Shown here piece by piece: positions 8,126 through 42,330 of a stretch of DNA of 64,000 nt; the first letter of the stretch is position 1, and each line of letters starts with the position of its first letter. Under the pieces are notes generated by a model. The model worked only from the letters and a program-made list of their open reading frames with translations. It ran no database searches and was not told the DNA's origin. Made by a program: the position numbers and the translations under genes. The DNA lies in contig JBOHGD010000001.1 of NCBI GenBank assembly GCA_050699955.1, positions 126,418 to 190,417 of the forward strand, in the 5' to 3' direction. Source of the DNA: Pseudonocardiaceae bacterium (GTDB lineage Bacteria; Actinomycetota; Actinomycetes; Mycobacteriales; Pseudonocardiaceae).

Positions 8126-10254
<2,129 letters not shown>

Positions 10255-21555: not shown

Positions 21556-21633
21556 AAGGTGGGCTGTCCGGGGGATACGGTCGCGACACCATCCAGACCA
21601 TCCCTAAGAAAACAGAAATCGACGGAGGAGACC

Positions 21634-21951
21634 GTGGCCCTTCCCGAGCTGACCGAGGAGCAGCGGGCCGCTGCGCTGGAGAAGGCGGCTGCCGCTCGCC
21701 GCGCCCGGGCCGAGCTCAAGGAGCGCCTCAAGCGTGGTGGGACCAATCTCAAGGAGGTCCTCGCCAATTCTGACAGCGATGACATCCTGGGCAAGATGAA
21801 GGTCTCGGCGCTGTTGGAGGCCCTTCCGGGCGTAGGCAAGGTGCGCGCCCAGCAGATCATGGAGCGGCTGGAGATCGCCCCGAGCCGACGGCTGCGCGGG
21901 CTCGGTGACCGTCAGCGCAAGGCGCTGCTGACCGAATTCAGCGGAGAGTGA
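21634..21951 (+). CDS. mihF: Integration host factor, actinobacterial type (mIHF/sIHF)
   Basis: GGAGGAG lies upstream of GTG 21634. ALPELTEEQRAAALEKAAAARRARAELKERLKRGGTNL...VSALLEALPGVGKVRAQQIMERL. Confidence 0.9.
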   Translation: MALPELTEEQRAAALEKAAAARRARAELKERLKRGGTNLKEVLANSDSDDILGKMKVSALLEALPGVGKVRAQQIMERLEIAPSRRLRGLGDRQRKALLTEFSGE

Positions 21952-21958
21952 CCAGGCG

Positions 21959-22585
21959 GTGACGACATGCGAGCCGGGGCCCCCCGAGGGCGGCGGGCCC
22001 CGGCTCGCTGTTGTGTCGGGGCCCTCCGGGGTCGGCAAGTCCAGCGTCGTCGCCGAGGTCCGCCGACTTTGTCCGCAGCTTTTCGTCAGCGTCTCGGTGA
22101 CCACTCGATCGCCTCGCGAAGGGGAACGACCCGGCGAGGATTACCATTTCGTGGACGGCGCCACCTTCGCTGACCTGGTGCGCCGCGGGGAGCTGCTCGA
22201 ACACGCTCAGTACGCGGGCAACTCCTACGGCACACCGGCCGGGCCGGTGCGGGCGGCGCTGGCCGCCGGTCGGTCAGCTCTGCTGGAGATCGAGTTGCAG
22301 GGTGCCCGGCAGGTGCGGGCGGCGATGCCGGATGCAGTGCTGGTGATGCTGGTGCCGCCGTCCTGGGAGGAGCTGGGCGGGCGGCTGTCGCACCGCGGCA
22401 CCGAGAACCCCGCGGCACGGGAACGTCGCTTACAGGTTGCCCGCATCGAACTCGACGCCGCCGGCGAGTTCGATGCGGTGGTCGTGAACGACGATGTGCA
22501 CCGTGCCGCCAAGGAATTGATATCCTTAACGGTCGGCACGACTACCGGACACTTCCGGGCTCGCGTGACCCCGGCCGACCTCTGA
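21959..22585 (+). CDS. gmk: Guanylate kinase
   Basis: VVSGPSGVGKSSV...TTRSPREGE..G.DYHFV. Confidence 0.93.
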   Translation: MTTCEPGPPEGGGPRLAVVSGPSGVGKSSVVAEVRRLCPQLFVSVSVTTRSPREGERPGEDYHFVDGATFADLVRRGELLEHAQYAGNSYGTPAGPVRAALAAGRSALLEIELQGARQVRAAMPDAVLVMLVPPSWEELGGRLSHRGTENPAARERRLQVARIELDAAGEFDAVVVNDDVHRAAKELISLTVGTTTGHFRARVTPADL

Positions 22586-22604
22586 AGGCATCTGGAGCGA
22601 CTGA

Positions 22605-22895
22605 GTGAGCATTCCCGCCGAACTGGGCGCGCTGGGCGCGCCCTCGGTCATGGCCCCCGAGGGCATCACCAACCCTCCCATCGACGACCTGCTGAGCAAG
22701 GTCAGCTCGAAGTACGCGCTGGTCATCTTCGCAGCGAAGCGGGCTCGTCAGATCAACGACTACTACGCGCAGCTCGGAGAGGGCCTGCTGGAGTACGTCG
22801 GCCCGCTGGTCGAGCCCGGGCCGAGGGAGAAGCCGCTCTCGATCTCGCTGCGTGAGATCCACGCCGGGCTGCTCGAGCACACCGAGGGCGAGTGA
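22605..22895 (+). CDS. rpoZ: RNA polymerase omega subunit
   Basis: [20 protein letters not shown]. Confidence 0.93.
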
Positions 22896-24136
22896 CCCAC
22901 GCCGTCCCCGTCCCGCCGGGACAACTCCGACAGATCGTTCTCGGCGTCGGGGGCGGCATCGCCGCTTACAAAGCATGCGAGGTGCTGCGCCGGCTCACCG
23001 AGGCGGGCCATCAGGTCCGGGTCGTTCCCACCGAGGCGGCGCTGCAGTTCGTCGGCGCGGCCACCTGGGAGGCACTGTCCGGATCTGCGGTGCGCCATAG
23101 CGTCTTCGCTGATGTTCCCGACGTGCCGCACGTGCGGCTGGGCCAGACCGCCGATCTGGTGCTGGTCGTCCCGGCGACCGCGGACCTGCTGGCCCGCGCC
23201 GCGCACGGGCAGGCCGACGATCTGCTGACCGCCATGTTGCTGACCGTTCGCGGCCCGGTGCTCCTGGTTCCCGCGATGCACACCGAGATGTGGGAACACC
23301 CCGCGACGATGCACAACGTCGAGGTCCTGCGCTCCCGCGGAACCATCGTCGCCGAGCCGGCTCGCGGGCGGCTGACCGGTACCGACTCCGGAGTGGGCCG
23401 ACTGCCGGAGCCCGTGGAGATCGTCGATCTGGCCACTCTGTTGTTGCATCGCCATGATGCGCTTCCCCGAGATCTCGTCGGCCGGCATGTCGTGGTCTCC
23501 GCAGGAGGTACCCGGGAGCCGCTGGACCCGGTCCGTTTTCTGGGCAACCGGTCCTCGGGTCGGCAGGGTTATGCGCTCGCCCAGGTCGCGGCGCAGCGCG
23601 GGGCCCGGGTGACGCTGGTGGCGACGCATACCGCCGACCTGGCCGATCCGGCCGGGGCCGAGGTGGTCCGGGTGGGCACCGCGCAGCAGCTGGGGGAGAC
23701 CGTGCTCAAGGCCGCAGCGGAGGCCGACGCGGTGGTGATGGCGGCCGCCGTGGCGGACTTCCGCCCGACCAGCCCGCGACCGGACAAGATCAAGAAGTTC
23801 GGGTCGGAACCGGAGCCGATCTCGCTCACCGTCAATCCGGACGTCCTGGCCGAACTGGTGCTACGACGCCCGGAGGGCCAGATCGTCGTCGGTTTCGCGG
23901 CCGAGACCGGCGACGCCGACGGTGACGTGCTGGCGCACGCCCGGGCGAAGCTCGCCCGCAAGGGCTGCGATCTGCTGGTGGTCAATGCGGTCGGAGACGG
24001 CCGGGCCTTCGATGTCGAGCACAACTCAGGCTGGCTGCTCGGCGCCGACGGTGTGCAGACCGAGTTGCCCGACGGGCCCAAGGTTCTGCTGGCCGCGCGG
24101 GTGTGGGACGCGGTCAGCGCTCGGCTCAAGGGCTGA
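22892..24136 (+). CDS. coaBC: Bifunctional phosphopantothenoylcysteine decarboxylase / phosphopantothenate-cysteine ligase
   Basis: [18 protein letters not shown]...[13 protein letters not shown]...[25 protein letters not shown]. Confidence 0.95.
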
Positions 24137-24220
24137 GCCGGACCGTCGCCGATTCCCGGCGTGGCTGCCGCGGCCTCGGTAGGCTCCGATGAGCAGGTGT
24201 ACTCCAGTGAAAGGGAACCC

Positions 24221-25414
24221 GTGAGCTGTCGACTGTTCACCTCCGAGTCGGTTACCGAGGGGCACCCGGACAAGATGTGCGACGCGATCAGCGATTCGGT
24301 GCTGGACGCGTTGTTGGCCCAGGATCCCCGTAGCCGCGTCGCGGTGGAGACCATGGTCACCACCGGGCAGGTGCATGTCGCGGGAGAGGTCACTACGCGG
24401 GCCTACGCGGACATTCCCGGCATCGTGCGGGACACGGTGCTCGAGATCGGTTACGACTCCTCGGCCAAGGGGTTCGACGGGAACTCCTGCGGAGTGAGCG
24501 TCTCGATCGGTGCGCAGTCCCCGGACATCGGACAGGGTGTCGACCTCGGCTACGAGAGCCGGGTGGAGGGCTTCGGTGACGAGATCGGCCGGCAAGGCGC
24601 AGGTGACCAGGGGCTGATGTTCGGCTACGCCTGCACCGACACGCCGGAGCTGATGCCGCTGCCGATCGCGCTGGCACACCGGTTGGCTCTGCGGCTGACC
24701 GAGGTCCGCAAGCAGGGTGTGCTGCCCTACCTGCGGCCGGACGGCAAGACCCAGGTGACCATCGAGTACGCCGGTGACCAGGCGGTCAGACTGGACACAG
24801 TCGTCGTCTCCACGCAGCACGCCGCAGACATCGACCTGGAGCAGATGCTCGCTGTCGACGTGCGCGAGCAGGTGGTCGGACCGGAGATCGCCGGGCTGGA
24901 GCTGGATGTCTCCGACGTGCGGTTGCTGGTCAACCCTACCGGCCGGTTCGTCATCGGTGGCCCGATGGGGGATGCGGGCCTGACCGGCCGCAAGATCATC
25001 GTCGACACGTACGGCGGGATGGCCCGGCACGGCGGGGGCGCCTTCTCCGGTAAGGACCCGTCGAAGGTGGACCGTTCCGCGGCCTACGCGATGCGCTGGG
25101 TGGCCAAGAACGCGGTAGCCGCCGGGCTGGCCACTCGGATCGAGGTACAGGTGGCCTACGCGATCGGCAAGGCCTCGCCGGTGGGGCTGTTCGTGGAGAC
25201 CTTCGGCACCGAGACGGTGGACCCGATGAAGATCCAGGCTGCCATCAACGAAGTGTTCGACTTGCGGCCGGGCGCGTTGATCCGGGACCTGGACCTGCTG
25301 CGACCGATCTACGCGCGGACCGCTGCCTACGGTCATTTCGGCCGGACGGACCTGGACCTGCCGTGGGAGCACACCGACCGCGCCGACGCGCTGAAGGCCG
25401 CGGCTGGAGCCTGA
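24221..25414 (+). CDS. metK: S-adenosylmethionine synthase
   Basis: [22 protein letters not shown]...[12 protein letters not shown]...[19 protein letters not shown]. Confidence 0.97.
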
Positions 25415-25496
25415 CTGGGCACGGGCGGCGCTTCTCCGATTGGTATCACCTTCCCGCGAGGAGCGGTGCTCACAATGCAACAGGAGACCACGCACG

Positions 25497-26336
25497 GTGT
25501 CCGAGAATCGCGAACCTGCAGAGCCTACTTCCGGCAGAGGTCGCCTCAGCCTTCGAGCTGACTGCGAGCGCTGCTTCGCGCTGTGCTGTGTCGCCCCGGC
25601 TTTCTCAGCCTCGGCAGACTTCGCGATCGACAAGGACGCCGGGCAAGCCTGTCCCAATCTGCGATCGGACTTCCGCTGCGGCATTCACGCACGCCTCAGG
25701 CAGCAGGGCTTTCCGGGTTGCACCGTGTACGACTGCTTCGGCGCGGGGCAAAAGGTCTCCCAGGTCACCTTCGGCGGACGGGATTGGCGGCGGGCTCCGC
25801 GAACCGCACAGCAGATGTTCGAGGTGTTCCCGATCATGCGGCAACTCCATGAGCTGCTCTGGTATCTGACCGAAGCGCTGACGCTGCCACCAGCCCGCCC
25901 GCTGCACGGTGAGCTCACTCGCGCGCTCGACGAGACCGAGCGCCTCACGCACAGCAGTCCCGGCTCTCTCCTGGAACTGGACATGGCGGCACACCGACGA
26001 GACCTCAATGCCCTACTGCTACGCACGAGCGAACTCGTGCGAGCCGAAGTCCGGCACCAGAAGAAGGATCACAGAGGCACTGACCTCATCGGGGCCGACC
26101 TCAGAGGCGCTGACCTCAGAGGCGCCAACTTGAGGGGGGCATACCTCATTGGGGCCGACCTCAGCGGCGCTGATCTGAGAGTGGCCGACCTTATCGGGGC
26201 CGACTTCAGAGATGCAGATCTCAGAGCTGCCGACCTCACCGAGAGTATCTTCCTCATCCAGTCCCAGCTCGATGCGGCGAAGGGCGATACCGACACGAAG
26301 TTACCGCCGTCGCTCACTCGCCCGACGCATTGGTAG
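25497..26336 (+). CDS. Pentapeptide-repeat protein with an N-terminal Cys-rich (CxxCxxxCC, UPF0153-like) domain
   Basis: The N-terminal domain reads [12 protein letters not shown]...CPNL...FRCGIH...[12 protein letters not shown]. The C-terminal repeats read [49 protein letters not shown]. The start was chosen at GTG 25497, downstream of AGGAGA. TTG 25440 is also possible. Confidence 0.8.
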
Positions 26337-26613
26337 CCACCGCGGTTCGCGATCGGTCAGCGGGTCCACCTGCCTACTGAGCGGGTCGGCCGGGTCACCG
26401 AACTCGCCGCGGCCGAGCAGTACTGTTGCGCCTTTTTCGACTTCAACCTTCGGCTGACCGGAGGATGCCTGCAGCTCGAGATCCGCGCCCGGGCCAACGC
26501 TGCATCGCTGTTGGCCGACGTGTTCGGTACTGCCGACTGATCTCCCGCCCGCCGGCCCGGTACCGGCCCGACCGGTTCGACGTGAGGGGTGCCCTGATCT
26601 GCCTTGCCCGGGA

Positions 26614-27084
26614 TTACCTTCCCGCGAGTATCGCTTTCGCCAAGCGAGTGACCCGAGTTGCACGTTGTGCCGGGGTGGGCTGGCGGATTGTGAGGGGTCG
26701 CTGCTGCTCGCCTGGGACGTGCAGTGCCGACGGAGCCGGGAAGGTCCGGGTGGGCGCGCCGGGATGAGCCGGGTGCACCAGGTGTAGCAGGGCTCGCAGC
26801 GTCGGTTCGGCGGGCCCCTCGTAGGCCCATACCGCCAGCTGCGGGGCGAAGACGTCGACCGGCTTCGGAACCCGCGCCGCCGTGATCCGCTCGTAGGTGC
26901 GGATGGTGACCAGGTCGACGTAGCCCGGCCATTCGTAGTACGCCAGCAGTGCCGCCGGGTTGTCGCGGGGTCCGCAGCAGTAGCGGATGAACCCCTCCTC
27001 GACGAGATCACGGTGCAGCTGCTCCAGCTGCGGTGTCATCAGCGCACCGGCGTCCGCGCCGCGGCTGAGTTCGCTACGGATCAC
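26614..27084 (-). CDS. Hypothetical protein (156 aa), no family recognised
   Basis: Third-position G+C is high over the first ~110 codons. The sequence looks natural (LVEEGFIRYCCGPRDNPAALLAYYEWPGYVDLVTIRTYERI...LAVWAYEGPAEPTLRALLHLVHPAHPGAP). The last ~25 codons lose codon bias, so the 3' end is uncertain. Confidence 0.5.
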   Translation of the reverse strand: MIRSELSRGADAGALMTPQLEQLHRDLVEEGFIRYCCGPRDNPAALLAYYEWPGYVDLVTIRTYERITAARVPKPVDVFAPQLAVWAYEGPAEPTLRALLHLVHPAHPGAPTRTFPAPSALHVPGEQQRPLTIRQPTPAQRATRVTRLAKAILAGR

Positions 27085-27120
27085 GACCTGCCGATCTCGC
27101 GGAGGTTGCTGAACGGGTCC

Positions 27121-27519
27121 TCACCGGTCTTCATTGGATAACCCCAACGGGGTGAACGGTGCCGTGTCCGGACCGCCCTCGGCCGACGGCGCGACTCGGC
27201 GGATCACCGCGACCCACCGTGACGGGCGCTGCGCCAGCACGACCTTCTCGCGTCTCTCGCGGTCCAGCCGCTTCGCAATCTCCTGTACTGACACGGCCGA
27301 CACGATCGCCCGGCCGGTCGGCGCATGCCGGGGCCGCCGAGTGGCGCGCCCCGGTGCCGCCCGAATGCCGCCGGTTTGGCGCCGTTCGCGCCAGACGGTG
27401 ACACCCCACCACCCGAACAGGACGGCATCCACTGCCCACACCACGCCGAGCGCGAGCAGGAACCAGGGGGATTCCGACCCCGGCAGGCAGTTCCCGGCCG
27501 CGCACCCCGGCCGCGACAC
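27121..27519 (-). CDS. Small membrane-anchored hypothetical protein
   Basis: The per-position G+C pattern supports this frame over the two overlapping ORFs. One TM segment (WFLLALGVVWAVDAVLFGWWGVTVW) is followed by a basic cytoplasmic tail. Confidence 0.5.
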   Translation of the reverse strand: MSRPGCAAGNCLPGSESPWFLLALGVVWAVDAVLFGWWGVTVWRERRQTGGIRAAPGRATRRPRHAPTGRAIVSAVSVQEIAKRLDRERREKVVLAQRPSRWVAVIRRVAPSAEGGPDTAPFTPLGLSNEDR

Positions 27520-27829
27520 ACGCGTTCACCGCGCGACCGGCCAGGCCCGCACCACGGCACCGACCGCGGAGTCCCGGATCGCCGTCCAGTCCACGCCTGC
27601 TGGGTTCGTCCTCGTAACAGCGCTCATGTGATCTCCCCGTGTTGTGGTCGCCCGTGGCGCGACCGAGGGGCGTTCATGAGCCGCGCCACGGGCCTGACCG
27701 TGATCACAGCGGCAGTGCTGGACCAGCTCCACCAGGTGGTGCGGTAGCGCGGGCAACGGTGGAGTTTGCAGGTGACGGGTGGTAACGGGCCGCTCCCGTT
27801 CTGTCAGTGGGTGCCGCTACGGTGATCCA

Positions 27830-29287
27830 ATGACAACCAAGGGGAGTCGAGCGGAGTGCCCAGAGTGCGGGGCGCGGCTGCGCCGAGGCCAGCCGGTCGG
27901 CGCGGTGTGTGATCCCTGCCTGCGTAAAGGTCCCCGGTTCGCCCTGCCCCCCGGCTTCTATGACGCGCAGCCCGTGGCGGCCGCGTTGGCGGTGTACGAC
28001 TTCGGCACCGTGTTTCTGGCGATCCGAGCTGAGCAGCGCTGGTCCCAGGAACGGCTTGGTGAGTTCGTCGGCATCGACCAGGCCCGGATCTCCGAGATCG
28101 AGCGTGGCGTGCGGCAACTGCGCGACGTGCGTCTGGTGGCGAAACTCGCCGCCAAGTGCGCGATCCCAGCGGTCAAACTCGGGTTCAGCGCGGTTACCGT
28201 GGGCGGTGGGGCCAACGGGAAGGGCAGTTGGGTGGAACGCAGAGACTTCATTCAGCGAGTGGCTGGCATGACCCTCGGCTTCGGCACGGCAGGGATCGAC
28301 CTCGACCGGCTCAACGCTCTGCTACCGCAGGCCGATCCCACCGGGACCCGCCATGTTGGTGTATCCGATGTGGAGGCCATCGAGCAGGCCACCGCCGCGT
28401 TCCGGAAGCTCGACAGCGTGCACGGCGGTGGAGTGCCCCGAGCCGCGGCGATCGCCCAGCTCCAGTCCACGCTCCCGCTGCTGGGTGCCGAGAGCACACC
28501 GGACGTGCGATCCCGACTGCTCGTCGCGGTCGGCAACCTCGCGATGCAAGCCGGATGGATGAGCCACGACGTGCAGGACCACGACGCCGCACACAGGCTG
28601 TGGCTGATCGGCTTGGAACTCGCCCGCGAAACCGACGACCCGCGTGGCCCGGACCTGATCGTGTGCATGTTGATGGACATGACCGCCCAGGCACTGGCAC
28701 TGGGCCGACCGGACGAGGCCAAGCGGCTGGTGCAGCTCGGCCACGCCACCGTCGCCGACGGAGCGCACCCGGTGGCGGCGTCGACGCACAGCTTCCTGGC
28801 GCACAACCAGGCCCGGACGCACGCCGCACAGGGCGACGTGGCCGCCTGTGAGCGCGCGCTCGGGCAGGTGGTGGAGCGGTTCGGTGTCGCCGACCCGGAC
28901 ACCGCCGCTCCGTGGGCCGCGGCGATCGACCCGTCGGCACTCGAAGGCTGGCAGGGTTGGGCCCGCTACGAGCTGGCCGCCGTCACTCGCGACCCCCGCA
29001 TCGCCAGCCAGGCGGTGCCCCTGCTGCGGCACGTCATCAGCCACTTCCCCGCCAGCCACGCCCGGACCCGGGCGCTGAACATGACCGAGCTCACCGGGGC
29101 GCACGCGCTCGCCGGGGACGCGGACACGGCCGTGAGCGTCGGCCACCAGGCCATCGACGCCGGGATGGGCCTGTCTTCCCAGCGCATCCGCATCGGGCTG
29201 CGTGCGCTCCACGGCGTGCTGGAGCCGATGCACACCAGTGCAGGAGTCGCTGAGCTGCGCGAACGCCTCGCCGCCACTGCGGCGTAG
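27830..29287 (+). CDS. XRE-family HTH regulator with an N-terminal Zn-ribbon-like CxxC...CxxC and a long helical (TPR-like) C-terminal domain
   Basis: The Zn-ribbon-like motif is CPECGARLRRGQPVGAVCDPC. The HTH is RWSQERLGEFVGIDQARISEIERGVRQL. A ~330-aa Ala/Leu-rich helical repeat region follows. Confidence 0.8.
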   Translation: MTTKGSRAECPECGARLRRGQPVGAVCDPCLRKGPRFALPPGFYDAQPVAAALAVYDFGTVFLAIRAEQRWSQERLGEFVGIDQARISEIERGVRQLRDVRLVAKLAAKCAIPAVKLGFSAVTVGGGANGKGSWVERRDFIQRVAGMTLGFGTAGIDLDRLNALLPQADPTGTRHVGVSDVEAIEQATAAFRKLDSVHGGGVPRAAAIAQLQSTLPLLGAESTPDVRSRLLVAVGNLAMQAGWMSHDVQDHDAAHRLWLIGLELARETDDPRGPDLIVCMLMDMTAQALALGRPDEAKRLVQLGHATVADGAHPVAASTHSFLAHNQARTHAAQGDVAACERALGQVVERFGVADPDTAAPWAAAIDPSALEGWQGWARYELAAVTRDPRIASQAVPLLRHVISHFPASHARTRALNMTELTGAHALAGDADTAVSVGHQAIDAGMGLSSQRIRIGLRALHGVLEPMHTSAGVAELRERLAATAA

Positions 29288-29527
29288 CTATCCCCACTAT
29301 TCGAGCGGTCGCGAGGAGTCGGCGGCATAGACCTGGCGCGAAAGTGTCCCTCTACCACACGAAGACGCATTCGGGAAGGGCACCCGGCGATAGCCGTATC
29401 GCAGTAAGTTACGAGCGTGCGGTGCGATCGGGTACGAGCGACACGCTGCGGCTGGCGTTACCGATGGCCGCTACCGCTGCCTGAGAGAGGAAGCACGGCA
29501 GGGTGTTGAGGAAGGGGGGTGGGATCG

Positions 29528-29854
29528 ATGGCTCGGTATCGGGGTGATCCGTTGGCATCGGTGGCGGCGCGGTTCCCGCTGTCGACCTCGCCGTTCGCGG
29601 TGACTCCCGACGGTGGTGCGCCGTCGGGCCCGGTGACCCGGCCGTGGGGGCTGCGGTGGTTGCGGCCCATTCCGGTCGGTGTTGCACCGGCTTACCGGTA
29701 TTGCCCGATACGTCAGGTGGCCGTGGCTGCGGATGGCAGTGGGCTGCGGTGGATGGACAGCGAGGGGCAGCAGTGGTCCTCCATTGCCGAGCGCGATGGC
29801 GACGAGGGGCCTTCAGAGGATTATGGCTGGGATACCAGCGGGGACGTGAGTTGA
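29528..29854 (+). CDS. Candidate RiPP (graspetide) precursor peptide, 108 aa
   Basis: GAGGAAGGGGGG lies 9 nt upstream of ATG 29528. The stop overlaps the ATP-grasp start (TGATG). There are no enzyme motifs. The C-terminal 37 aa (GLRWMDSEGQQWSSIAERDGDEGPSEDYGWDTSGDVS) has 10 Asp/Glu, 7 Ser/Thr and one Asp-Gly. Confidence 0.7.
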   Translation: MARYRGDPLASVAARFPLSTSPFAVTPDGGAPSGPVTRPWGLRWLRPIPVGVAPAYRYCPIRQVAVAADGSGLRWMDSEGQQWSSIAERDGDEGPSEDYGWDTSGDVS

Positions 29855-30828
29855 TGACGGTCCTGGTGCTGGCCCAGGAGCTGGATCGTGCTGTCGACGG
29901 CGTGGTGAGCGCGCTGGCCGATCTTGATGTACCGGTATTCCGGGCCGATTGTTCCTGGTTCCCGCAGCGACTCACGCTGGATGCAGAACTGGATGATGGG
30001 CGCTGGCGGGGTTATCTGGCCACCGCGCATCGGCGGCTGGAGCTGGCCGACGTGCGCTCGATCTGGTACCACTCGCCGTCGCCGTTCGTGTTCCCAGCCG
30101 GGATGTCGCAGGCCGAACAGCGCCACGCCGAGCAGGAGGCCCGGATCGGGCTCGGTGGTGTGCTGACGTCGCTTCCCGTGTTGCAGGTCAACCACCCGCA
30201 CCGGGTAGCCGCCGCCACCAAGCCGTGGCAGCTCACCGTGGCCGCCGCCTGCGGGCTGCCGGTTCCGGGCACGCGGATCGTCAACCGCGCGGAGGCCGCC
30301 CGCGAGTTCGTCGCGGGGGCCGGTGGTGAGGTGGTGAGCAAGCTGTTCGCCAACCGGGTCGACGAGGAGGGTCGCGCGAAAGTCGGGCACACCCACCTGC
30401 TCACCGCGGCCGACCTGGCTGATCTGCGGGGCATTGACACCACGGCTCATGTCCTGCAGCGATTTGTGGACAAGCATTACGACCTGAGAGTTGTGGCCGC
30501 CGGCGAGCGACTCTTTCCGGTCGCCATGTACCCGACCAGCGCCGCCGCGCGGATCGACTTCCGCAGTGACTACCGGGCGCTGCGGCATGAGGTGGTCGAG
30601 CTGCCGCCCGCGGTCGCGGCGGGGGTGCGGGCACTGATGGCCGAGTTGGGTCTGGTGTTCGGCTGCCTGGATTTCGTGGTTGATCACTCGGGGGTTCATC
30701 ACTACCTGGAGGTCAATCCTGGTGGTGTCTACGGGTGGCTGGAGGCACTCGCCGGGGTACCGATCACCGAGGCGCTGGCTGAGCTACTCGCCCAGCCGGT
30801 GACCGCAGCTAGCCGGGCGCCGGCCTGA
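29854..30828 (+). CDS. ATP-grasp ribosomal-peptide maturase (omega-ester/graspetide macrocyclase)
   Basis: RimK/MdnC-like ATP-grasp. The N-terminal region reads MTVLVLAQELDRAVDGVVSALADLDVPVFRAD. Other segments are KPWQLTVAAACGLPVPGT, EVVSKLF, HVLQRFVDKHYDLRVVAAGERLF and GCLDFVV...YLEVNPGG. Single-nucleotide overlaps with both neighbouring genes. Confidence 0.85.
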   Translation: MTVLVLAQELDRAVDGVVSALADLDVPVFRADCSWFPQRLTLDAELDDGRWRGYLATAHRRLELADVRSIWYHSPSPFVFPAGMSQAEQRHAEQEARIGLGGVLTSLPVLQVNHPHRVAAATKPWQLTVAAACGLPVPGTRIVNRAEAAREFVAGAGGEVVSKLFANRVDEEGRAKVGHTHLLTAADLADLRGIDTTAHVLQRFVDKHYDLRVVAAGERLFPVAMYPTSAAARIDFRSDYRALRHEVVELPPAVAAGVRALMAELGLVFGCLDFVVDHSGVHHYLEVNPGGVYGWLEALAGVPITEALAELLAQPVTAASRAPA

Positions 30829-31994
30829 TGGACTGGGCCCAGCGGCTGGCAGGCCTGGCCGACCAGCTCAGCGCCGAGGGAAAACTGACCTCGCCGCAGT
30901 GGCGGGCTGCATTCTGTGCTGTTCCCCGCCACGAACTGGTGCCCGAGATCTACCTTCAGGACGAGCACCGCCAGTGGGGCCCGGCCGAGGACAACACCGC
31001 ACAGTGGTGGGACTTGGTCTACTCCGACGCCACCGTGATCACCAGCGTGCTGCCCAACTCCCAGGGCGTCCTCGTGCCGGTCTCCTCATCGACCAAGCCC
31101 GGCCTCATGCTGCGGATGCTGGAAGCACTCGACGTTCGCGACGGGATGCGGGTGCTGGAGATCGGCACCGGCAGCGGCTACAACGCCGCGTTGCTCTCGG
31201 CGCGCCTCGGCGCGCAGCAGGTGTTCTCGCTCGACCTGCGCGCCGAGCTGGTCGAGTTGGCCCGCGACCGGCTGGCCCGGCTGGGATACCGGCCGATGTT
31301 GGCCGCCCGCGACGGCACCGAGGGCCTGGCCGAGCACGCCCCCTACGACCGGATCATCGTGACTTGCGGCATGCCCTTCATCCCCGCGGCCTGGATCACC
31401 CAACTGGCCCCCGGCGGCCTGCTGCTGGTCGACCTGGAGGGGCCGCTGAGCGCGGGCAACCTCATCGCGCTACGCCGAGACACCGACGTCGAATGCCTGC
31501 GCGGGCGGTTCCTGCCCTGGTTCGGGCGGTTCCTGCCGATGCGACGCAACACCACAGCAGCCGACTACCACTTGCGGGCACCCGATCCCGACACCACCGC
31601 GCCAATCGAGGTCGGCTGGACCACCGTCGACCCCAGCGAACTCGACCAGGAGTTCCGGCTTCTCGCCCAGCTCCACCTACCCAGCGGAACCTTCCACACC
31701 CTCACCGCAGCGACACCGCAGCCCCGGCCCACCCACACCCGCCTGGTCAGCCCGGACGGCTCCTGGTGCGAGGTCGCCCGCGAGCCCAGCACACACAGCG
31801 GGTACGCCCTGCGCCAGGCCGGCCCACAACGGCTCTGGGACACCGTGGAAACCGCCCACCAGCAGTGGTACGAGTTGGGCGAGCCAGCGTGGTCCCGCTT
31901 CGGCGTCACCGCCACCCCCACCAGTCAGCACATGTGGCTCAACAACCCCGACAACAGCCCCCACCACTGGCCACTGTGGACCACAGTGGCCTAA
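30828..31994 (+). CDS. Protein-L-isoaspartate O-methyltransferase (PIMT) homologue with a ~170-aa C-terminal extension; predicted aspartimide-forming RiPP tailoring enzyme
   Basis: PIMT motifs are AVPRHELVP, SSTKPGLMLRMLEAL, the SAM motif RVLEIGTGSGYNAALLSARLG, YDRIIVTCGMPFIPAAWITQLAPGGLLLV, and a C-terminal extension. The start overlaps the ATP-grasp stop (TGATG). Confidence 0.85.
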   Translation: MDWAQRLAGLADQLSAEGKLTSPQWRAAFCAVPRHELVPEIYLQDEHRQWGPAEDNTAQWWDLVYSDATVITSVLPNSQGVLVPVSSSTKPGLMLRMLEALDVRDGMRVLEIGTGSGYNAALLSARLGAQQVFSLDLRAELVELARDRLARLGYRPMLAARDGTEGLAEHAPYDRIIVTCGMPFIPAAWITQLAPGGLLLVDLEGPLSAGNLIALRRDTDVECLRGRFLPWFGRFLPMRRNTTAADYHLRAPDPDTTAPIEVGWTTVDPSELDQEFRLLAQLHLPSGTFHTLTAATPQPRPTHTRLVSPDGSWCEVAREPSTHSGYALRQAGPQRLWDTVETAHQQWYELGEPAWSRFGVTATPTSQHMWLNNPDNSPHHWPLWTTVA

Positions 31995-32165
31995 CCGTGG
32001 GTATCCATGTAGTACTGGCTCGCCTCATCGGCAAGCCTCCTGACCCGTCACAGGTGTGCCAAGCATGCAGAGATCACAAGAACGTCGAGGAGCACCACAA
32101 GCGGGCGCGAGACCGCAGCCCCCGGATCCCAACAAGCACGACCGGTGACCGGCCCACGGACTGAC

Positions 32166-32294
32166 GTGGGCGAGCTGCGGGCGCGGATGGTGCAGCAGCT
32201 CGCGGCGGAGGACTATCTGGCCAGATGGGAAGCGGCGATAGCGCCGTGGTGGCCGACGCTGGAGATGGTGCCCCGCCACCGGAAGCGTCACTGA
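32166..32294 (+). pseudogene. Orphan N-terminal fragment of a second PIMT-like methyltransferase (42 codons)
   Basis: VGELRARMVQQLAAEDYLARWEAAIAPWWPTLEMVPRH|RKRH* parallels the N-terminus of the neighbouring methyltransferase (RLAGLADQLSAEGKLTSPQWRAAFCAVPRHELVP). It terminates right after the VPRH motif, 5 nt from the convergent helicase stop. Confidence 0.4.
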
Positions 32295-32299
32295 CCCTA

Positions 32300-34541
32300 C
32301 TATCGCGCGTCGCGAACAACAGCCAACGCTTGAAGTACTCGATCATGTTCTGGAGTTGTGATGCCCACGAGTGAACCTTCAAGCAGCTCCATGAGCCGCC
32401 CGTAGGCCCATCGCTGGAGTTGGTCGTCGGTCTCAACCTCTGGAGCAGGGAGTAGCTCATTGAGCATGTGCGCTGCGGCTCGGGGCTGGACACCTGCCCG
32501 CATCCAAGCGAGTATCTCCGGGCTCGCCGCTCCCGAGCGCACTGCCAGCGGCAGGAGGGTGAGGCATCGGAGGCTCTCTTCGGGGAGCCCCCATGGTCCG
32601 TCCGGGTCCTCCTCCTGTCCAGTTGCCACGATCGCTCCGAGCGCGCCAGCGATCAATGATAGCCCGAATCGGAAACCTTCGGCGATCACCGTGATCGCCC
32701 TCGGTAGCGGATCCTGGGAGCCGCGCCCGGCGTTGCCGTTCACCGGCTTGGGGTGAATTTCCTCAGCGACAGTGATCAACGGCTTGCCGGTCATCCAGGC
32801 GGCGAGGGCGCGTGCGAAGGCCGTCCACCCGGCGTCGCGTTTGGTCTGATCGGCCGCGTAGATCGCGGACAGGCGGCTTGTTGTCCCGTATGGCTTCTTG
32901 GGCAGAATTCTGTCCAAGGCGCGTGGCGGGAGGGTTCTCAGCAATTCGATCATCAGCCGCGCCCACTCGACAATTGTCGTTGGGACCACATCTGCTAAGC
33001 GTGCTCGCAGTCCCTGGTAGAGTTCGACTGTTTCTGGCAGGGCAATCCCGGATCGATGCGCTGCGAGGGCGACCCACGACGGTGCTCCGGCCTGTATCAA
33101 GAAGCTCTGGCCAAGAGCGTCGACGGCGCTTGCGATCTCCCTTGCGCGTGGCACGACCTGTGCTCGATGAATGGCCCAAGTCTTGCTAACTACTCCTTGG
33201 GTATCGTCGTGCTCGCTGGCGAACGACAAGAACGCGAAAGCGGTTTGGTCCGCATCGCTCATGGTCTCCACGCGCAGGTCTCCGCTGAGCGCGGTTGCGA
33301 TCAGACCGTCGAGGGAGCTGGTGATGTCGGTGGAGGCGTCCTCCTCCTGAAGGAACTCGGCGGCGCGGACTGCTCGCATGGCATCGCCCGCGGAGTCAAG
33401 CGGTACGGCCTTATTTGGAACGATGATCGCCATTGACCGGGGTGCGACGTGAGCGCGGCCGGCCCTTCCGATCGCATTGAGCAACTGCGCCCGCGTACGC
33501 TGTTTCTTCTGCTCTACCGATGCTTGATCGTCGTACCCGATGTCGGTTCCGCCGATCACAACGGCGGTGGCAGGAAGGTTGAGGCCCTGGGCCATCGTTC
33601 CCGTCGCGAACATGGCCAAGGCGATCTCCTCGTCGAAGGCGACCTCGCTGGCGCGCTGCTCCTCGCGCAGGAGCGCGCTGGTGTGCACCGCGACCCGCTT
33701 GCGCAACATTCCGCGCAAGGCCGTCTCGGCTCCCAGCTCAAGTTGGGCCAGGATGAGGAGCGATTCGACGGTCTTGCCCAGGTCAACGGGTCTGCTGCTG
33801 AAGCCGGATATCTTGGTGGCGGCCAGGAAACTGTCGTGCTTGCTGCGCGGAAGGAAGGCGAGCACCCTGTCGCCTCGCTCGCCGAGCCTTTGCACTAGCG
33901 CTATAGACGCTGGGTTGCAGTACCCATCGGATTTGATCTGCTGATCGCGGTTCACGGTCAGTTCTACGCCGATGTCTGTCTTGGCTAGATCGTAGTCCAG
34001 GGTCTCGTTGCTACGCCAAGCTCCTTGCAGACCGACGAGCAGCGCAATCGGTGCCATGAACTTTTCGTTCATGCGGTGGCCCCCGCTGGGACAGATCCGC
34101 GAACGCGGCGCCGCCGGCAGCCTTCGCGCGGTCACTGTCGAATCCGGCGATCGCCCGTAGAGTGCGGGTCGGTCGCCAAGGCTCGTCGACCACAATGGCT
34201 GGGATCTGTGTTGCGTCACGGAGCCAACTGGCGAGGTCGTGGGGGTTGGCCACCAGGGCCGAAAGCAGGAGCAGACGCGCTTGTGGCGCGCGGTGCAGGA
34301 TCTCCGCGATGACCAGTTCGGCGATCACGCCTCGGCTTTTGGTCCGCCGGGGCGCAGTAAGACAAGCTGAACACAAGCATCCGGTTGGGTTCGGGCCTTG
34401 TCGTGGTGCATAGACGACGGCGAGCTCATCGAAGTTTAGCGTGCCGGGTTGGATCCGCCGTGCACGGCACGGCAGATGTCGGGCAGTGTTGCGTTGGCCG
34501 AGAGCGGGGCAGACTCTCAGCGCGGACGTACTGCACGGCAA
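32300..34541 (-). pseudogene. Superfamily-2 (Lhr/Ski2-like) helicase remnant, with the 5' end deleted and one internal frameshift
   Basis: The upstream frame (34541-34011) has a degenerate motif II, FDELAVV, and motif III, RLLLLSALVANPHDLASWL. A frameshift lies near 34080-34100. The downstream 639-aa ORF has helicase-C motifs V/VI (ATGTMAQGLNLPATAVVIGG...QLLNAIGRAGRA) and a ~400-aa unassigned C-terminal region. There is no room for Walker A before the DUF3024 gene. G+C is visibly lower than in the flanks. Confidence 0.65.
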
Positions 34542-34653
34542 CGTCGGACCAGCTCAGCGTCCGAACCCGCCATGGTCGCCACGAGAATCGAGCACCTGAC
34601 GTCGCTGCCGGAGGGGAGGGCCCGGCGAAGATGCGGATGGCACGCTGGTGCCC

Positions 34654-34996
34654 ATGTCCGCCATCAAATTGCCCGAGCTCGACGTGGCACGCGTGCAGCG
34701 TTGGTGTGCTGAGCGCGTGCCAGAACGGGCCCGTCATCAGGTTCGGGTCGACTGCGACGTGGCGCCTCGGCACCTGACAATCGTTGAGCAGCGCGCCCCT
34801 TGGCGTGAGGACTTCGAGTCGGAGTGGACCCGCTTCCCGATCGCGCGGCTGCGGTACACCAAGACGAGCAAGACGTGGATGTTGTACTGGCGCGACCGTA
34901 ACCTGCGCTTCCACGCCTACGACCGCATCGGGCCATCGGCCGGTATCAACGACCTGCGAGATCGACAGTGATCCAACTGGCATCTTCTGGGGCTGA
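34654..34996 (+). pseudogene. DUF3024-family gene with a frameshift near its 3' end
   Basis: LPELDVARVQRWCAERVP...LTIVEQRAPWREDFESEWTRFPIARLRYTKTSKTWMLYWRDRNLRFHAYD is family-like. The conserved end EIDSDPTGIFWG* is in the +1 frame from about 34953 (ATCAACGACCTGC|GAGATCGAC). Confidence 0.6.
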
Positions 34997-35190
34997 CCGG
35001 AGGATCATCCTCCATCTGGCCCGAGACGACAGCGCGCAGACGGCCAGAAGCGGTGGCCGGGCCTGAGCCGAGACACCGGCCTCGCGCCGTCCGGCTCATC
35101 GCACTCGGAGGCGCCTGGCTCACCGTACAACGTGCCAGACCTCATCTCGGCTGATCCGCCCATCGGGCAGACAGCGTGTCCTCGCCTGAT

Positions 35191-36291
35191 TCACTTGCCC
35201 ACGGTGGCGGCGACGCGTTCCTCGACCGGGAGGTAGTCGAGGTCGTAGCCGAAGGCGCGGGGCCCGACCAGCGCGAGGCCCTGGCTGGTCCGCCAGCGGG
35301 CGTCGCAGGGGGCCGCGATCACCGTCACCCGGAAGCCGTAACGAAGCTCCTCAGTGGTGATCGGCGCGCCGGTGTCGGCGTCGAGGACGATGATCAGATC
35401 CGGCGTCGAGGCGACGACCTGGCCGTCGCGGACGGCGAGGAGATGCTCGTTCTGGAAGCGGAGCGCGAGCACGGAGCCGGTGTCGGCGCCAGCGCCCTCG
35501 ATCCGGGCCCGGCCTCTGGCGAAGCCGGTCTCGGTGCGCCGTTGGACGTCGCTGATCTTGCCGTCGAACAGACGGTAGCCGGCCAGCCGGTGCAGGATCG
35601 CGGCGATCGGATCGCCGTGCGCGGCCCGGGTCCGGCGGATGAGCCGCCCGAGTTCCTCGGCGAGGCTGAGCGTCCCCGGGATCATCGCCTGCTCGAGCTG
35701 GTCGCCCGAGAGCGGGTAGAGCGCGATCTTGGCCACGCAGCCCATGTCGATCGTGAGCGAGCGCGCGAACCGCTCGGCCCAGTGGTTGTCGATGGTGTCG
35801 ATGATGGCCGTGTTGCCCTTCTCGTCCGCCAACGCCATCGGCGTGGCCGCCACGCCGTACAAGGTCGCGGTCACCATCTGGATCTCGGGGAAGGCCCGGC
35901 CCATGCCGTCGGCGTCGACGACCGGGATGCCCAGCTGTGCGGCCACCCGGAACGGGACCGTCGAGTTCGACCCGCCGGCCTCGATCGAGACGGTGTGGGT
36001 GATCGGCCGCCCGAGGTAGGACTGCAGCGCCTGGAGCGCGCGGCGGTGCTCGTCGCCGCGGGGTAGCTTCTCGACTCCGACCGTCGGCGCGCCCATCCCC
36101 GCGGTGGCCACGACGAGGGCGTCGTCGGGCACCTCGTCCACCGCGACGAGCTCGACCGGTCCGTGCTCGCGGATCTCCCGCTTGGCGAGCAGGGCGCCGA
36201 GGTAGGGGTTGCCGCCACCGCCCGTGCCGAGCACGGCGGCGCCGATGGCCAGGTCGTCCAGGTTGCCCTCACCGATACGCCGCACCGGCAT
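35191..36291 (-). CDS. DUF917 protein (hydantoinase-associated)
   Basis: LDDLAIGAAVLGTGGGGNPYLGALLAKREI...VATAGMGAPTVGVEKLPRGDE. The start was set at ATG 36291, overlapping the upstream hydantoinase gene by 23 nt. Confidence 0.8.
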   Translation of the reverse strand: MPVRRIGEGNLDDLAIGAAVLGTGGGGNPYLGALLAKREIREHGPVELVAVDEVPDDALVVATAGMGAPTVGVEKLPRGDEHRRALQALQSYLGRPITHTVSIEAGGSNSTVPFRVAAQLGIPVVDADGMGRAFPEIQMVTATLYGVAATPMALADEKGNTAIIDTIDNHWAERFARSLTIDMGCVAKIALYPLSGDQLEQAMIPGTLSLAEELGRLIRRTRAAHGDPIAAILHRLAGYRLFDGKISDVQRRTETGFARGRARIEGAGADTGSVLALRFQNEHLLAVRDGQVVASTPDLIIVLDADTGAPITTEELRYGFRVTVIAAPCDARWRTSQGLALVGPRAFGYDLDYLPVEERVAATVGK

Positions 36292-39709: not shown

Positions 39710-41710
39710 GTGAGCAACGTCGGCCGGTCCCGTCGTGGCCAGCAGGTCCCGGCCGCTGTGCAACCCGTCGCCCGAGTGTGCGTGGACATCCCGCTGGCCC
39801 ACCTCGATCGGCCGTTCGACTACCAGGTGCCCGCCGACCTGGACGCGACGGCGGTGCCGGGGGTGCGGGTGCGGGTGCGGTTCGCCGGGCGGCTGGTGAA
39901 TGGGTGGCTGCTGGAGCGGGCCGAGGGATCCGATCATCCGGGCAAGCTCGGCTGGCTGGAGCGGGTGGTCTCGCCCGAACCGGTGCTCAGCCCGCGGATC
40001 GCGGCGCTGACCCGGGTGGTGGCCGACCGGTGCGCGGGCACGATGAGCGAGGTACTGCGCCTCGCCGTGCCGCCGCGCCATGCCCGCATCGAAGCCGAGC
40101 CGAGCACACCCGTCGCAGCCCACCCGCAACGGCCGGCGACCGACTGCTGGGCCCGCTACCCCCGAGGCCCGGCCTTCCTGGACGCTCTGCACCAGGGCCG
40201 GGCCGCGCACGCCTGCTGGCAGGTGTTACCCGGGGAGGACTGGCCTGCCCGGCTGGCCGAAGCGGCGGTCACGGTGGCCGCCACCGGACGAGGCGCGCTG
40301 CTGGTGGTGCCCGATCATCGGGACACCGCGCGGGTGCACGCCGCAGTCGCCGCACTGGCTGGGCCGGAGATGGTCGTCACCCTGGCCGCCGAGCTGGGGC
40401 CCGCCGAGCGGTACCGCAGATGGCTGGCGGTGCGCCGGGGCGCGGTGCGGATCGTGGTGGGCACCCGGGCGGCAGCCTTCGCCCCCGTTGCGGAGCTGGG
40501 TCTGATGGTGCTCTGGGACGACGGTGACGACCTGCACGCCGAACCGCGGTCCCCCTACCCGCATGCCCGGCTGGTGCTCGGCCAGCGTGCGGTCCTGGAA
40601 GCTGCGGCGCTGCTCGTCGCGGGCCACGCCCGTACCGCCGAGACCCAGCTGTCGGTCGACACCGGATGGGCTCACGAGATCGTCGCGCCGCGCAGCGCGG
40701 TGCGGGTCGTGGCGCCGCGGGTCACCGCGATCGCGGAGGATGACACCCAGCTGGCCCGGGATCCGGCCGCCCGCGCGGCGCGGCTGCCCAGCGTGGCGTT
40801 CGAGGCGGCCCGCGCGGCACTGGGTCGCGACCGGCCGGTGCTCGTGCAGGTACCTCGCCGTGGCTACGTGCCCGTGTTGGCCTGCGGCCAGTGCCGGGTC
40901 CCGGCGCGCTGCCGGCGCTGCGCAGGCCCGCTGGCGCTGCCCGGGGACGCTGCCACGCAGACGCCTGCGTGCCGGTGGTGTGGCGTCAGCGCGGCCGGTC
41001 ATCGGTGCCCCGCCTGCGGCTCGGGCCGGCTGCGGGCGGTGGTGGTCGGTGCCCGGCGGACCGCCGAGGAGCTCGGCCGCGCCTTCCCGGGGACAGCGTT
41101 GCGCAACTCCGGCGGAGGGGAGGTGCTGGCGGAGATCCCGCCGGGACCGGCGCTGGTGATCGCCACTCCCGGCGCTGAGCCGCTGGCCCGTTACGGGGCG
41201 GCGTTGTTGCTGGATGCCGCCGCCCTGCTGGCCCGGCCCGACCTGCGCGCCGCGGAGGAGGCGCTGCGGCGCTGGATGACCGCGGCGGCGATGGTCGAGC
41301 CGGCGGCCGACGGCGGGCGGGTGGTCGTGGTCGCTGAGGCTTCGCTGGTCCCGGTGCAGGCGCTGATCCGGTGGGATCCGGCCGGCCACGCCAGTGCCGA
41401 GCTGGCGGCCCGCACCGAACTCGGGTTTCCCCCCGCGGTGCGGATCGCCGCCGTGGACGGCACCCCGGATACCCTCGCCGGGCTGGCGGAGACGGTGGAG
41501 CTGCCTGCGGGGGCGGAGCTGCTGGGTCCGGTGCCGTTGCCGGCTGGGCGAACGGAGCAGGCGGGCGAGTGGGAACGGCTGCTGATCCGGGTCCCCCGTG
41601 CCCAGGGCAGGGCCCTGGCCGGCGTGCTGGCTGCACTGCAGGCTGGGCGCAGCGCCCGCAAGCTGCCCGACCCGCTGCGGGTCGAGCTCGATCTGCCGAC
41701 CGGTTCATGA
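39710..41710 (+). CDS. priA: Primosomal protein N' (PriA), actinobacterial type
   Basis: [17 protein letters not shown]... plus the Cys-rich zinc region [17 protein letters not shown]...CRWCG...CPACGS. Sits in the conserved position before def-fmt. Confidence 0.9.
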
Positions 41711-41776
41711 TCGGCCCTCGGCATCAGAACCGGCTACCGGAACACCGTTACGCACCGACCAGGCATACTTGGCCCC

Positions 41777-42325
41777 ATGCCCGTTCAGCCCCTCCGCCTC
41801 TTCGGCGATCCGGTACTGCGCGCCCGCGCGGACGAGGTCGTCGACTTCGACAAGGAACTCCGCAACCTGGTCCGCGACCTGTGGGACACCATGGCTGACG
41901 AGGGCGGAGCCGGGCTGGCCGCCCCTCAGCTGGGCGTCGCGCTGCGGGTGTTCACCTACCACTGTGACAGCTTCTCCGGGCATCTGGTGAACCCCACTTT
42001 CGACGTGGTGGATGAGCAGATGCAGGACGGGCCGGAGGGCTGCCTGTCGATCCCGGGGCTGTCCTGGGACTGCAGGCGCCATCTGCACGTCGTCGCTCGC
42101 GGGCTGGACCAGCACGGCGAGCCGATCGAAGTGCCCGGCTCCGAGAGCCTGGCCAGGGCGATCCAGCACGAGACCGACCACCTCGACGGTGTGTTGTTCA
42201 TCGACCGGCTCGACCCCGAGACCCGCAAACAGGCCATGCGGGAGATCCGGCAGGCGCGCTGGTTCGGCGCCGCCGAGCCGGTGGTCAAGGTCAGTCCGCA
42301 CCCGCTGCTGGGGAAGGTGCGCTGA
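41777..42325 (+). CDS. def: Peptide deformylase
   Basis: [10 protein letters not shown]...EGCLSIPG...HETDHLDG. Confidence 0.96.
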
Positions 42326-42330
42326 GCGGC

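Follow-up and report, generated by a model that had tools for sequence, protein, structure and literature searches.

Graspimiditides, or group 13 graspetides, are peptides made on ribosomes and modified after translation (RiPPs), four of which have been characterized, namely fuscimiditide, amycolimiditide, albusimiditide, and SsfA(BM). All four are stem-loops of Thr-Asp esters, with the donors N-terminal and the acceptors C-terminal of a loop in which an Asp-Gly is converted into an aspartimide by a methyltransferase, and the published core description of the class reads Ser/Thr, then a conserved Asp-Gly, then Asp/Glu. The original reports place the aspartimide of fuscimiditide at Asp10-Gly11 and its esters at T7-D18 and T3-D22, and document for ThfM and SsfM that the methyltransferase is active only after cyclization. 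They further describe a 67-amino-acid (aa) leader in the fuscimiditide precursor ThfA, with a conserved RPFG that was later identified as the key recognition sequence, and give precursor, ATP-grasp enzyme, and methyltransferase (A-B-M) as the gene order of nearly all described clusters. The clusters encode no dedicated protease nearby, and a native protease is not known for any graspimiditide. The methyltransferases, homologues of protein isoaspartyl methyltransferase (PIMT), typically carry WXXXGXP in their C-terminal domain. Published surveys count 1,326, 962-1,083, and 1,432 clusters, which come almost entirely from Actinomycetota, and the published precursors have been sorted into eight clusters. 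The DNA analyzed here, referred to as the window, is a stretch of 64,000 nucleotides (nt) of a Pseudonocardiaceae metagenome-assembled genome (MAG; GCA_050699955.1, contig JBOHGD010000001.1, positions 126,418 to 190,417). It contains three consecutive genes, A, B, and M (NCBI proteins MGH3793403-05), which very probably form a graspimiditide biosynthetic cassette, responsible for rings of side-chain esters and for an aspartimide formed by an enzyme. An aspartimidylated graspetide-class product had already been proposed from the letters of this stretch (the sequence-only reading), and the proposal is supported by best matches to an NCBIfam trio, a conserved A-B-M order, an RPWG leader motif, and a core with Asp-Gly (DG).

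The features of the cassette, with coordinates of the window, are as follows:

29508-29519, + strand: purine-rich ribosome-binding site GAGGAAGGGGGG, 8 nt 5' of the ATG of A, read from the sequence.
29528-29854, + strand: gene A, putative graspimiditide precursor, 108 aa, assigned by its TIGR04186 match, conserved relatives, and the ratio of nonsynonymous to synonymous substitution rates (dN/dS).
29639-29650, + strand: leader motif RPWG, A residues 38-41, counterpart of the RPFG recognition motif of graspimiditide leaders.
29774-29851, + strand: predicted core peptide, A residues 83-108, delimited by conservation, the pile-up on DG, and dN/dS.
29795-29800, + strand: Asp90-Gly91, predicted methylation and aspartimide site, with D90 conserved in at least 90% of the family and G91 invariant.
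29854-30828, + strand: gene B, ATP-grasp macrocyclase (graspetide synthetase), 324 aa, with TIGR04187 as best match and the Pfam MvdD pre-ATP-grasp domain.
30828-31994, + strand: gene M, PIMT-homologue O-methyltransferase, 388 aa, with TIGR04188 as best match and the Pfam PCMT domain.
31089-31439, + strand: PCMT domain of M, residues 88-204 (PF01135), from Pfam.
31440-31991, + strand: C-terminal substrate-recognition domain of M, approximately 184 aa, carrying WYELGEP.
31866-31886, + strand: WYELGEP (WXXXGXP), M residues 347-353, located as a motif.

The three open reading frames (ORFs) comprise 108, 324, and 388 codons on the + strand and neighbours are joined via TGATG overlaps. Gene A runs from the ATG at 29528 to the TGA at 29852-29854, the last A of which is, within TGATG at 29852-29856, the first base of the ATG of B (29854). 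The TGA of B (30826-30828) overlaps the ATG of M (30828) in the same fashion, within TGATG at 30826-30830, and M ends with the TAA at 31992-31994. The single-nucleotide overlaps given by the sequence-only reading were thus confirmed, with their coordinates; the strong Shine-Dalgarno sequence that it had placed 9 nt before the ATG is present as well, at a spacing of 8 nt instead of 9. In the closest related locus (L001), only the GAAGGGGG part of this ribosome-binding site is kept, plus approximately 45 nt before the ATG. A mechanical ORF list proposed longer starts for A (GTG at 29519) and B (GTG at 29644), but the shorter ones are taken as real because relatives of A open with MxxYRGDPL (MARYRGDPL..., supporting the ATG at 29528) and because the family profiles begin to align at residue 2 in B and at residue 10 in M. 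The G+C content of the window is 69%, the third-position G+C of A (0.74) is not striking, and no second copy of A, B, or M was found within the window. A perfect palindrome of 11+11 nt, GGCCACTGTGG-a-CCACAGTGGCC, occupies the final codons of M (31969-31991), just 5' of its stop codon. It could be a terminator hairpin without a T tract, or simply chance, and it is not kept in L001, L002, and L003.

Protein A divides into a basic leader (residues 1 to approximately 82; pI 10.2) and an acidic core (approximately 83-108; pI 4.05), the predicted sequence of which, WSSIAERDGDEGPSEDYGWDTSGDVS, is rich in Ser/Thr and Asp/Glu. This is in line with the sequence-only reading, which had noted a tail of that kind and no enzyme features; indeed, no Pfam domain was found in A. 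The unmodified protein has a computed average mass of 11,580.7 Da. It matched the NCBIfam model TIGR04186 ("putative ATP-grasp-modified RiPP") with 35 bits, above the cutoff of 25. A search of 5.8 billion clustered proteins retrieved 30 relatives at E < 1e-17, most of which, with few exceptions, count 105-112 aa, and in the resulting alignment (31 sequences) conservation runs along the full length. The leader of the family carries the motifs DPLxSVxx(R/Q)FP(L/M), PSGPxTRP(W/F)GLRWL, and YRYCPxRQVAV. The second of these holds the RPFG-type motif expected of class leaders (RPWG in the window, RP[FW]G in the family), with R38 and P39 invariant and G41 conserved in at least 90% of the sequences. 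The core consensus is W(S/T)(S/T)Ixx(K/R)DGDEGPS(K/E)DYGW(D/E)TxxD, and the residues R38, P39, L42, R43, Y58, Q63, W83, G91, D92, E93, G94, S96, D98, and D106 are invariant. The DGDEGPS and DGDEGPSxDYGW blocks were absent from the searchable paper texts. In comparison with the three closest loci, A had a dN/dS of 0.15-0.18, with values of 0.19-0.29 for the leader and of 0-0.04 for core residues 81-108 (two comparisons with an estimable synonymous rate). Hence, A is a real gene under purifying selection, which is strongest on the core.

The core follows the plan of the class, i.e., a Ser/Thr region, a loop with an Asp-Xaa dyad, and an Asp/Glu region, with a donor region that is unusually short (two residues). 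The candidate ester donors are S84, S85, and possibly S96, and the candidate acceptors are D98, D102, and D106. Counted from D90, S84 and S85 stand at -6 and -5, E97 and D98 at +7 and +8, D102 at +12, and D106 at +16. The core of the window contains no Lys, and its rings would therefore be esters only; in the sister clade, Lys occurs at -1 and +7. When 1.84 billion representatives were searched with a profile, 184 related precursor clusters were retrieved, and the 149 of these that were listed allowed a broader comparison. In 113 of the 149, a DG dyad was located with a Ser/Thr stretch on one side and an Asp/Glu stretch on the other. When these 113 were piled up on the Asp of DG, Ser/Thr occurred at -5 in 81%, and Asp/Glu at +7 in 62%, at +8 in 79%, and at +12 in 63%, a family-wide DG-anchored plan that the sequence of the window core fits. 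The position of S96 (+6) held Ser/Thr in 38%. The median precursor length among these 149 of 184 representatives was 112 aa, and the leader of ThfA alone counts 67 aa, so that the precursor cannot be called unusually long, as had been suggested from the letters. A single, nearly invariant Cys (Cys59) occurs in the leader motif YRYCPxRQVAV; the wider family commonly retains (Y/W)xYC at this position, and AlphaFold2 weakly models a small hairpin there, with strands at 56-59 and 64-67.

Protein B matched TIGR04187 ("ATP-grasp ribosomal peptide maturase, SAV_5884 family") best, with 343 bits over positions 1-311 of 312, and contains the Pfam MvdD pre-ATP-grasp domain. The microviridin models scored lower, and B failed their equivalog cutoffs (MvdD, 172 bits for a cutoff of 475; MvdC, 149 bits for 425). 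Its closest solved structures are 9bou (E 1.5e-36), followed by the microviridin ligases MdnC (5ig9, E 8e-32) and MdnB. Similarly, M matched TIGR04188 ("ATP-grasp peptide maturase system methyltransferase") best, with 339.7 bits over positions 1-363 of 363, compared with 134 bits for the FxLD-system methyltransferase and 95 bits for TIGR00080 (cutoff 159). It carries GTGSG, the GXGXG motif for S-adenosylmethionine (SAM), at residue 113. PIMTs in the PDB match M only across residues 85-217, and the extra C-terminal domain with WXXXGXP marks M as a PIMT homologue of the class. From these scores, B and M are read as divergent relatives of the mostly Streptomyces seed sequences rather than as members of another family. 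The assignment of the second ORF to the RimK/MdnC type of ATP-grasp proteins and of the third to proteins with PIMT signatures and an extra C-terminal domain, both made by the sequence-only reading, therefore held, as did the trio of NCBIfam models that it had pointed to (TIGR04186, TIGR04187, and TIGR04188 were the best matches of A, B, and M, respectively). The C-terminal domain, which it had described as extra (~170 aa), is standard in RiPP-associated PIMT homologues. In the NCBI Prokaryotic Genome Annotation Pipeline (PGAP), A is likewise called "putative ATP-grasp-modified RiPP", and the name given to B is "MvdC/MvdD family ATP grasp protein".

A scan for relatives of A in one genome per prokaryotic species returned 33 loci, hosted by Pseudonocardiaceae, Pseudonocardiales, or closely related uncultured Actinomycetota, among them Pseudonocardia acaciae DSM 45401, Pseudonocardia sp. 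CNS-139, and an Amycolatopsis isolate. To judge from these sequences, the core subfamily is restricted to this range of hosts. Homologues of A, B, and M followed one another in 30 of the 33 loci, the exceptions being two loci cut by contig ends and one (L017) with a truncated B and no M. Because the A-B-M order recurs in 30 of 33 independent loci, the arrangement is beyond chance. The window thus holds, in a Pseudonocardiaceae MAG, the three genes, for a precursor, for an ATP-grasp enzyme, and for an O-methyltransferase, in the order usual in Actinomycetota. Clustering of all flanking ORFs showed broad conservation of A, B, and M only, and no protease or transporter recurred beside the cassette in the 33 loci. 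The lack of a protease or exporter nearby, noted from the letters, is normal for the class and not an oddity. Some MAGs contain two paralogous A-B-M cassettes (L001 and L032; L002 and L003; L022 and L023), those of L022 and L023 sharing one contig, approximately 9 kb apart. In L018, a second M-like gene (8623-9513) lies downstream of M. In L017 (1028-1285), B is truncated after approximately 88 residues and M is absent, which suggests a cassette in decay.

Starting from the observed gene identities, family assignment, conservation, and synteny, the whole chemistry, residue pairing included, may be inferred as follows. Translation of A would yield the 108-aa precursor, the basic leader of which would be bound by B through the motifs SVxxRFPL, RPWG, and YRYCPxRQVAV. 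Using ATP, B would convert core Asp/Glu carboxylates into acyl phosphates and join them to Ser hydroxyls, giving omega-ester macrolactones in a stem-loop. Two esters are predicted, S85-D98 (inner) and S84-D102 (outer), around a loop with Asp90-Gly91. M would then recognize the cyclized peptide only and methylate Asp90 with SAM, after which the amide nitrogen of Gly91 would displace the methyl ester, giving the aspartimide and methanol. Leader removal and export would be performed by unlinked factors. The S85-D98/S84-D102 pairing follows the register of the fuscimiditide acceptors and is a guess, because the donors are adjacent here and spaced in the characterized peptides.

Several points weigh against this interpretation. 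Both enzymes score below the curated cutoffs of their best models, B by 7 bits (cutoff 350) and M with its 339.7 bits for a cutoff of 380, although these models lead the next best ones by 171 and 205 bits, respectively. PGAP calls M only "methyltransferase domain-containing protein", a generic name that is given because M scores under the curated cutoff. The TIGR04186 alignment spans leader residues 37-75 only and leaves the core outside. Further, only two adjacent hydroxyl residues precede DG, compared with the spaced Thr donors of the four characterized peptides, and the core subfamily is known from sequence alone. Lastly, AlphaFold2 modelled A from the 31-sequence alignment with low scores (mean predicted local distance difference test score, 59; predicted template modelling score, 0.25) and a core without structure, an outcome that is also consistent with a disordered precursor.

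A different end point is conceivable at residue 90, where the aspartimide may be an intermediate and the mature product may carry isoaspartate (isoAsp) or an isoAsp/Asp mixture, M acting in effect as an Asp-to-isoAsp isomerase. Indeed, co-expression of SsfA, SsfB, and SsfM, from a group 13 graspetide system, gave a mass-unchanged product with isoAsp81, and the imides of fuscimiditide and albusimiditide hydrolyze mainly to isoAsp. However, the aspartimide is the major product isolated from cells for fuscimiditide, amycolimiditide, and albusimiditide, and an isoAsp product is considered possible but unlikely for the window cassette.

Equally doubtful, for other reasons, is a ring topology that departs from the fuscimiditide-like bicyclic stem-loop, such as an S96 ester to D102 or D106, with overlapping microviridin-like rings or a tricyclic product, or else a single ester. 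S96 and D106 are invariant in the 31 sequences and could accommodate an additional cross-link or a different topology, the N-terminal donors are just two and adjacent, unlike the spaced donors of characterized members, and SsfA has unexpected linkages in which a side chain is joined to the C-terminus. All four characterized graspimiditides are nevertheless simple stem-loops, and Ser/Thr at +6 is conserved in only the 38% of the wider family mentioned above. With its adjacent donors and invariant Ser96 and Asp106, the core might form rings of a topology that would be new to the class; the bicyclic stem-loop remains the preferred prediction.

It is rather improbable that the modified full-length protein of approximately 11.5 kDa, with its leader retained, is the end product, which would make it a cross-linked small protein and not a secreted peptide. 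Such an outcome would suit the loci, none of which has a conserved protease or transporter gene adjoining the cassette, and the leader of 80 aa, the whole of which is length-conserved and under purifying selection. Enzyme recognition explains the conservation of the leader equally well, however, and A is predicted to be disordered, as is ThfA. Finally, there is next to no chance that B and M are enzymes of primary metabolism or repair (RimK/glutathione-synthetase-like and Pcm) beside an unrelated or spurious ORF: the secondary matches to RimK (TIGR00768, 18 bits for a cutoff of 143), LysX (15 bits), and Pcm (NF001453, 119 bits for 188) are weak, far under the cutoffs and under the 343 and 340 bits of the RiPP-specific models, and the first ORF is conserved, selected, and adjoins B and M in the 30 loci, so that this possibility is effectively refuted by scores, synteny, and selection. 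The sequence-only reading had named better scores for such housekeeping families, with no small acidic ORF in relatives, as the finding that would overturn it, and the opposite was found.

A graspimiditide cassette thus remains the preferred reading. What is already known about it is considerable, as the class is well catalogued and A itself was annotated as a putative ATP-grasp-modified RiPP; the sequence-only reading was right that the architecture has precedents, given more than 1,300 catalogued clusters. What is new is an intact, selected member with an uncharacterized core and a predicted donor arrangement unlike the characterized examples.

Upstream of the cassette lies a candidate regulator:

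27779-29287, + strand: candidate pathway regulator, 502 aa, with a XRE-type helix-turn-helix (HTH) and an NsdA-family domain resembling tetratricopeptide repeats (TPR).

This protein has an N-terminal CxxC...CxxC stretch and a XRE-type HTH at residues ~75-130 (Pfam HTH_3/HTH_31), and it passed the NCBIfam model NF053720 (NsdA_fam_reg) with 222.7 bits for a cutoff of 75 (residues 86-496). It is 58% identical to the gene at the same position in L001. Nucleotide similarity between the window and L001 extends over ~27111-32005, being patchy upstream of 27773 and interrupted at 29284-29464, and takes in the regulator and A-B-M and nothing else. A homologue of the regulator adjoins the cassette in 8 of the 33 related loci, in six of them directly upstream and on the same strand (L001, 4436-5953; L004, 94-804; L012, 4454-5710; L024, 4407-5972; L025, 4412-6007; L032, 4591-5742) and in two likewise upstream, on the opposite strand (L009, 4009-5451; L030, 2690-4159). 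It is a recurrent but optional partner of the cassette and, as inferred from its position only, would probably control A-B-M. The literature searched made no mention of NsdA together with graspetides. The combination of HTH and TPR is the architecture of peptide-sensing regulators of the RRNPP type in Firmicutes. By analogy, regulator and A-B-M could constitute a four-gene unit in which the cross-linked, aspartimidylated peptide is the signal or ligand of the TPR domain of the regulator. This idea is a long shot and very improbable; if true, such a peptide-sensing unit would give graspimiditides their first biological function.

In L001, the stop codon of the regulator abuts the conserved 45 nt before A, whereas the window has, in the region of 29288-29464, approximately 197 extra nt in between. 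The C-terminal ...ATAA* ending of the regulator occurs twice, at 29287 and, in another small ORF, at 29484, a duplication that hints at a local rearrangement. The spacer was considered as a repeated mobile element and rejected, as no other copy was present in the window or the related loci. An Rfam search of 24000-36000 returned nothing relevant with respect to a riboswitch or structured leader 5' of A, and the 253-nt region upstream of A folded no better than its shuffles (z = -0.53). When 27400-32400 was scanned for promoters and terminators, no site resembling a promoter emerged, and terminators occurred at chance level only.

Cassette and regulator are located in a variable stretch of approximately 14 kb that is flanked by metK and priA, both housekeeping genes, within a block (21559-25414 and 39710-43266) that reads carB/pyrF, mihF-like, gmk, rpoZ, coaBC, metK, the insert, priA, def, and fmt. 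None of the housekeeping or other accessory genes of the window recurs beside the cassette in the related loci, the partial matches being limited to the two small minus-strand ORFs at 26614-27084 and 27121-27519, immediately upstream of the regulator, in L017/L030 and L001. The SAM synthetase gene metK lies 4 kb upstream of the SAM-dependent M, a closeness that is probably coincidental because no related locus has metK nearby. Directly after metK, 25440-26336 (+ strand) encodes a protein of 298 aa that is Cys-rich in its N-terminal half and ends in pentapeptide repeats on the C-terminal side. At 32300-34541 (- strand), adjacent ORFs of 176 and 639 aa together resemble a broken Hel308/HamB-like (PDC-M23B) helicase, beside which a DUF3024 gene (PADLOC PDC-S43) occurs at 34648-34971 (+ strand). 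This helicase/DUF3024 segment abuts the cassette, has a lower G+C (0.61-0.66), and may be a decayed defence island. A 49-aa ORF (32145-32294) containing VPRH was considered as the remnant of a second methyltransferase and rejected, as it had no significant similarity to M and no Pfam match.

The cassette adds an intact member, the core of which is short, Ser-only, and Lys-free, to a RiPP class with four characterized products and, as such, offers a target for heterologous expression. Its combination of fuscimiditide acceptor spacing with different donors would represent a natural test of how the ATP-grasp enzyme chooses its residue pairs, and the recurrent NsdA-type regulator provides a lead on the control of graspimiditide clusters. 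Its practical value is modest, as the cassette opens no new kind of system and is not a surprising discovery.

Compared with known systems, M has the same catalytic fold and SAM motif as the housekeeping enzyme Pcm, but, unlike Pcm, it possesses the extra C-terminal domain of approximately 184 aa, its gene is translationally coupled to those of a RiPP precursor and cyclase, and its expected methylation target is Asp, not isoAsp. In the imiditides and pamtides, as predicted for the cassette, a specific Asp is turned into aspartimide or isoAsp by a PIMT homologue that carries WXXXGXP in its C-terminal domain. Their systems consist of precursor and PIMT homologue only, with the methyltransferase as class-defining enzyme acting on a linear peptide, whereas the window encodes an ATP-grasp enzyme in addition and M is expected to need a cyclized substrate. 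The microviridin systems (MdnA with MdnB/MdnC, or MvdC/MvdD) have ATP-grasp enzymes homologous to B and, presumably, the same mechanism of leader-guided ester formation. Unlike them, the cassette has one ATP-grasp enzyme instead of two, a core without Lys, so that no amide is possible, and a methyltransferase instead of an acetyltransferase and a C39-ABC transporter. Closer are the systems of amycolimiditide (Amycolatopsis), albusimiditide (Streptomyces albus J1074), and SsfA(BM) (Streptomyces sp. F-3), with the same A-B-M order, hosts within the Actinomycetota, and, as proposed for the cassette, a stem-loop with Asp-Gly and action of M after cyclization; the host genus of amycolimiditide also belongs to the Pseudonocardiaceae, as does the source of the window. 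Their cores form four or five esters from stems rich in Thr (TxTxT ... DxDxD) and show a conserved upstream His, whereas in that of the window the Ser/Thr are two and adjacent, a His of this kind is missing, and the DGDEGPSxDYGW block is present. The fuscimiditide system of Thermobifida fusca (ThfA/ThfB/ThfM) has the same three protein types and few possible esters. ThfA also resembles A in its long leader, which carries an RP(F/W)G motif, the lack of a linked protease or exporter, and the Asp-Gly in the loop; the gene order is B-A-M in T. fusca and A-B-M in the window. The precursors count 89 aa (ThfA) and 108 aa (window), and the loops read PDGQKP and RDGDEGPS, respectively. Fuscimiditide has its Thr donors at -7 and -3, where the window has Trp and Ala, with the adjacent Ser at -6 and -5 instead. 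The predicted acceptors D98 and D102, at +8 and +12, nevertheless stand in the register of D18 and D22 of fuscimiditide relative to D10.

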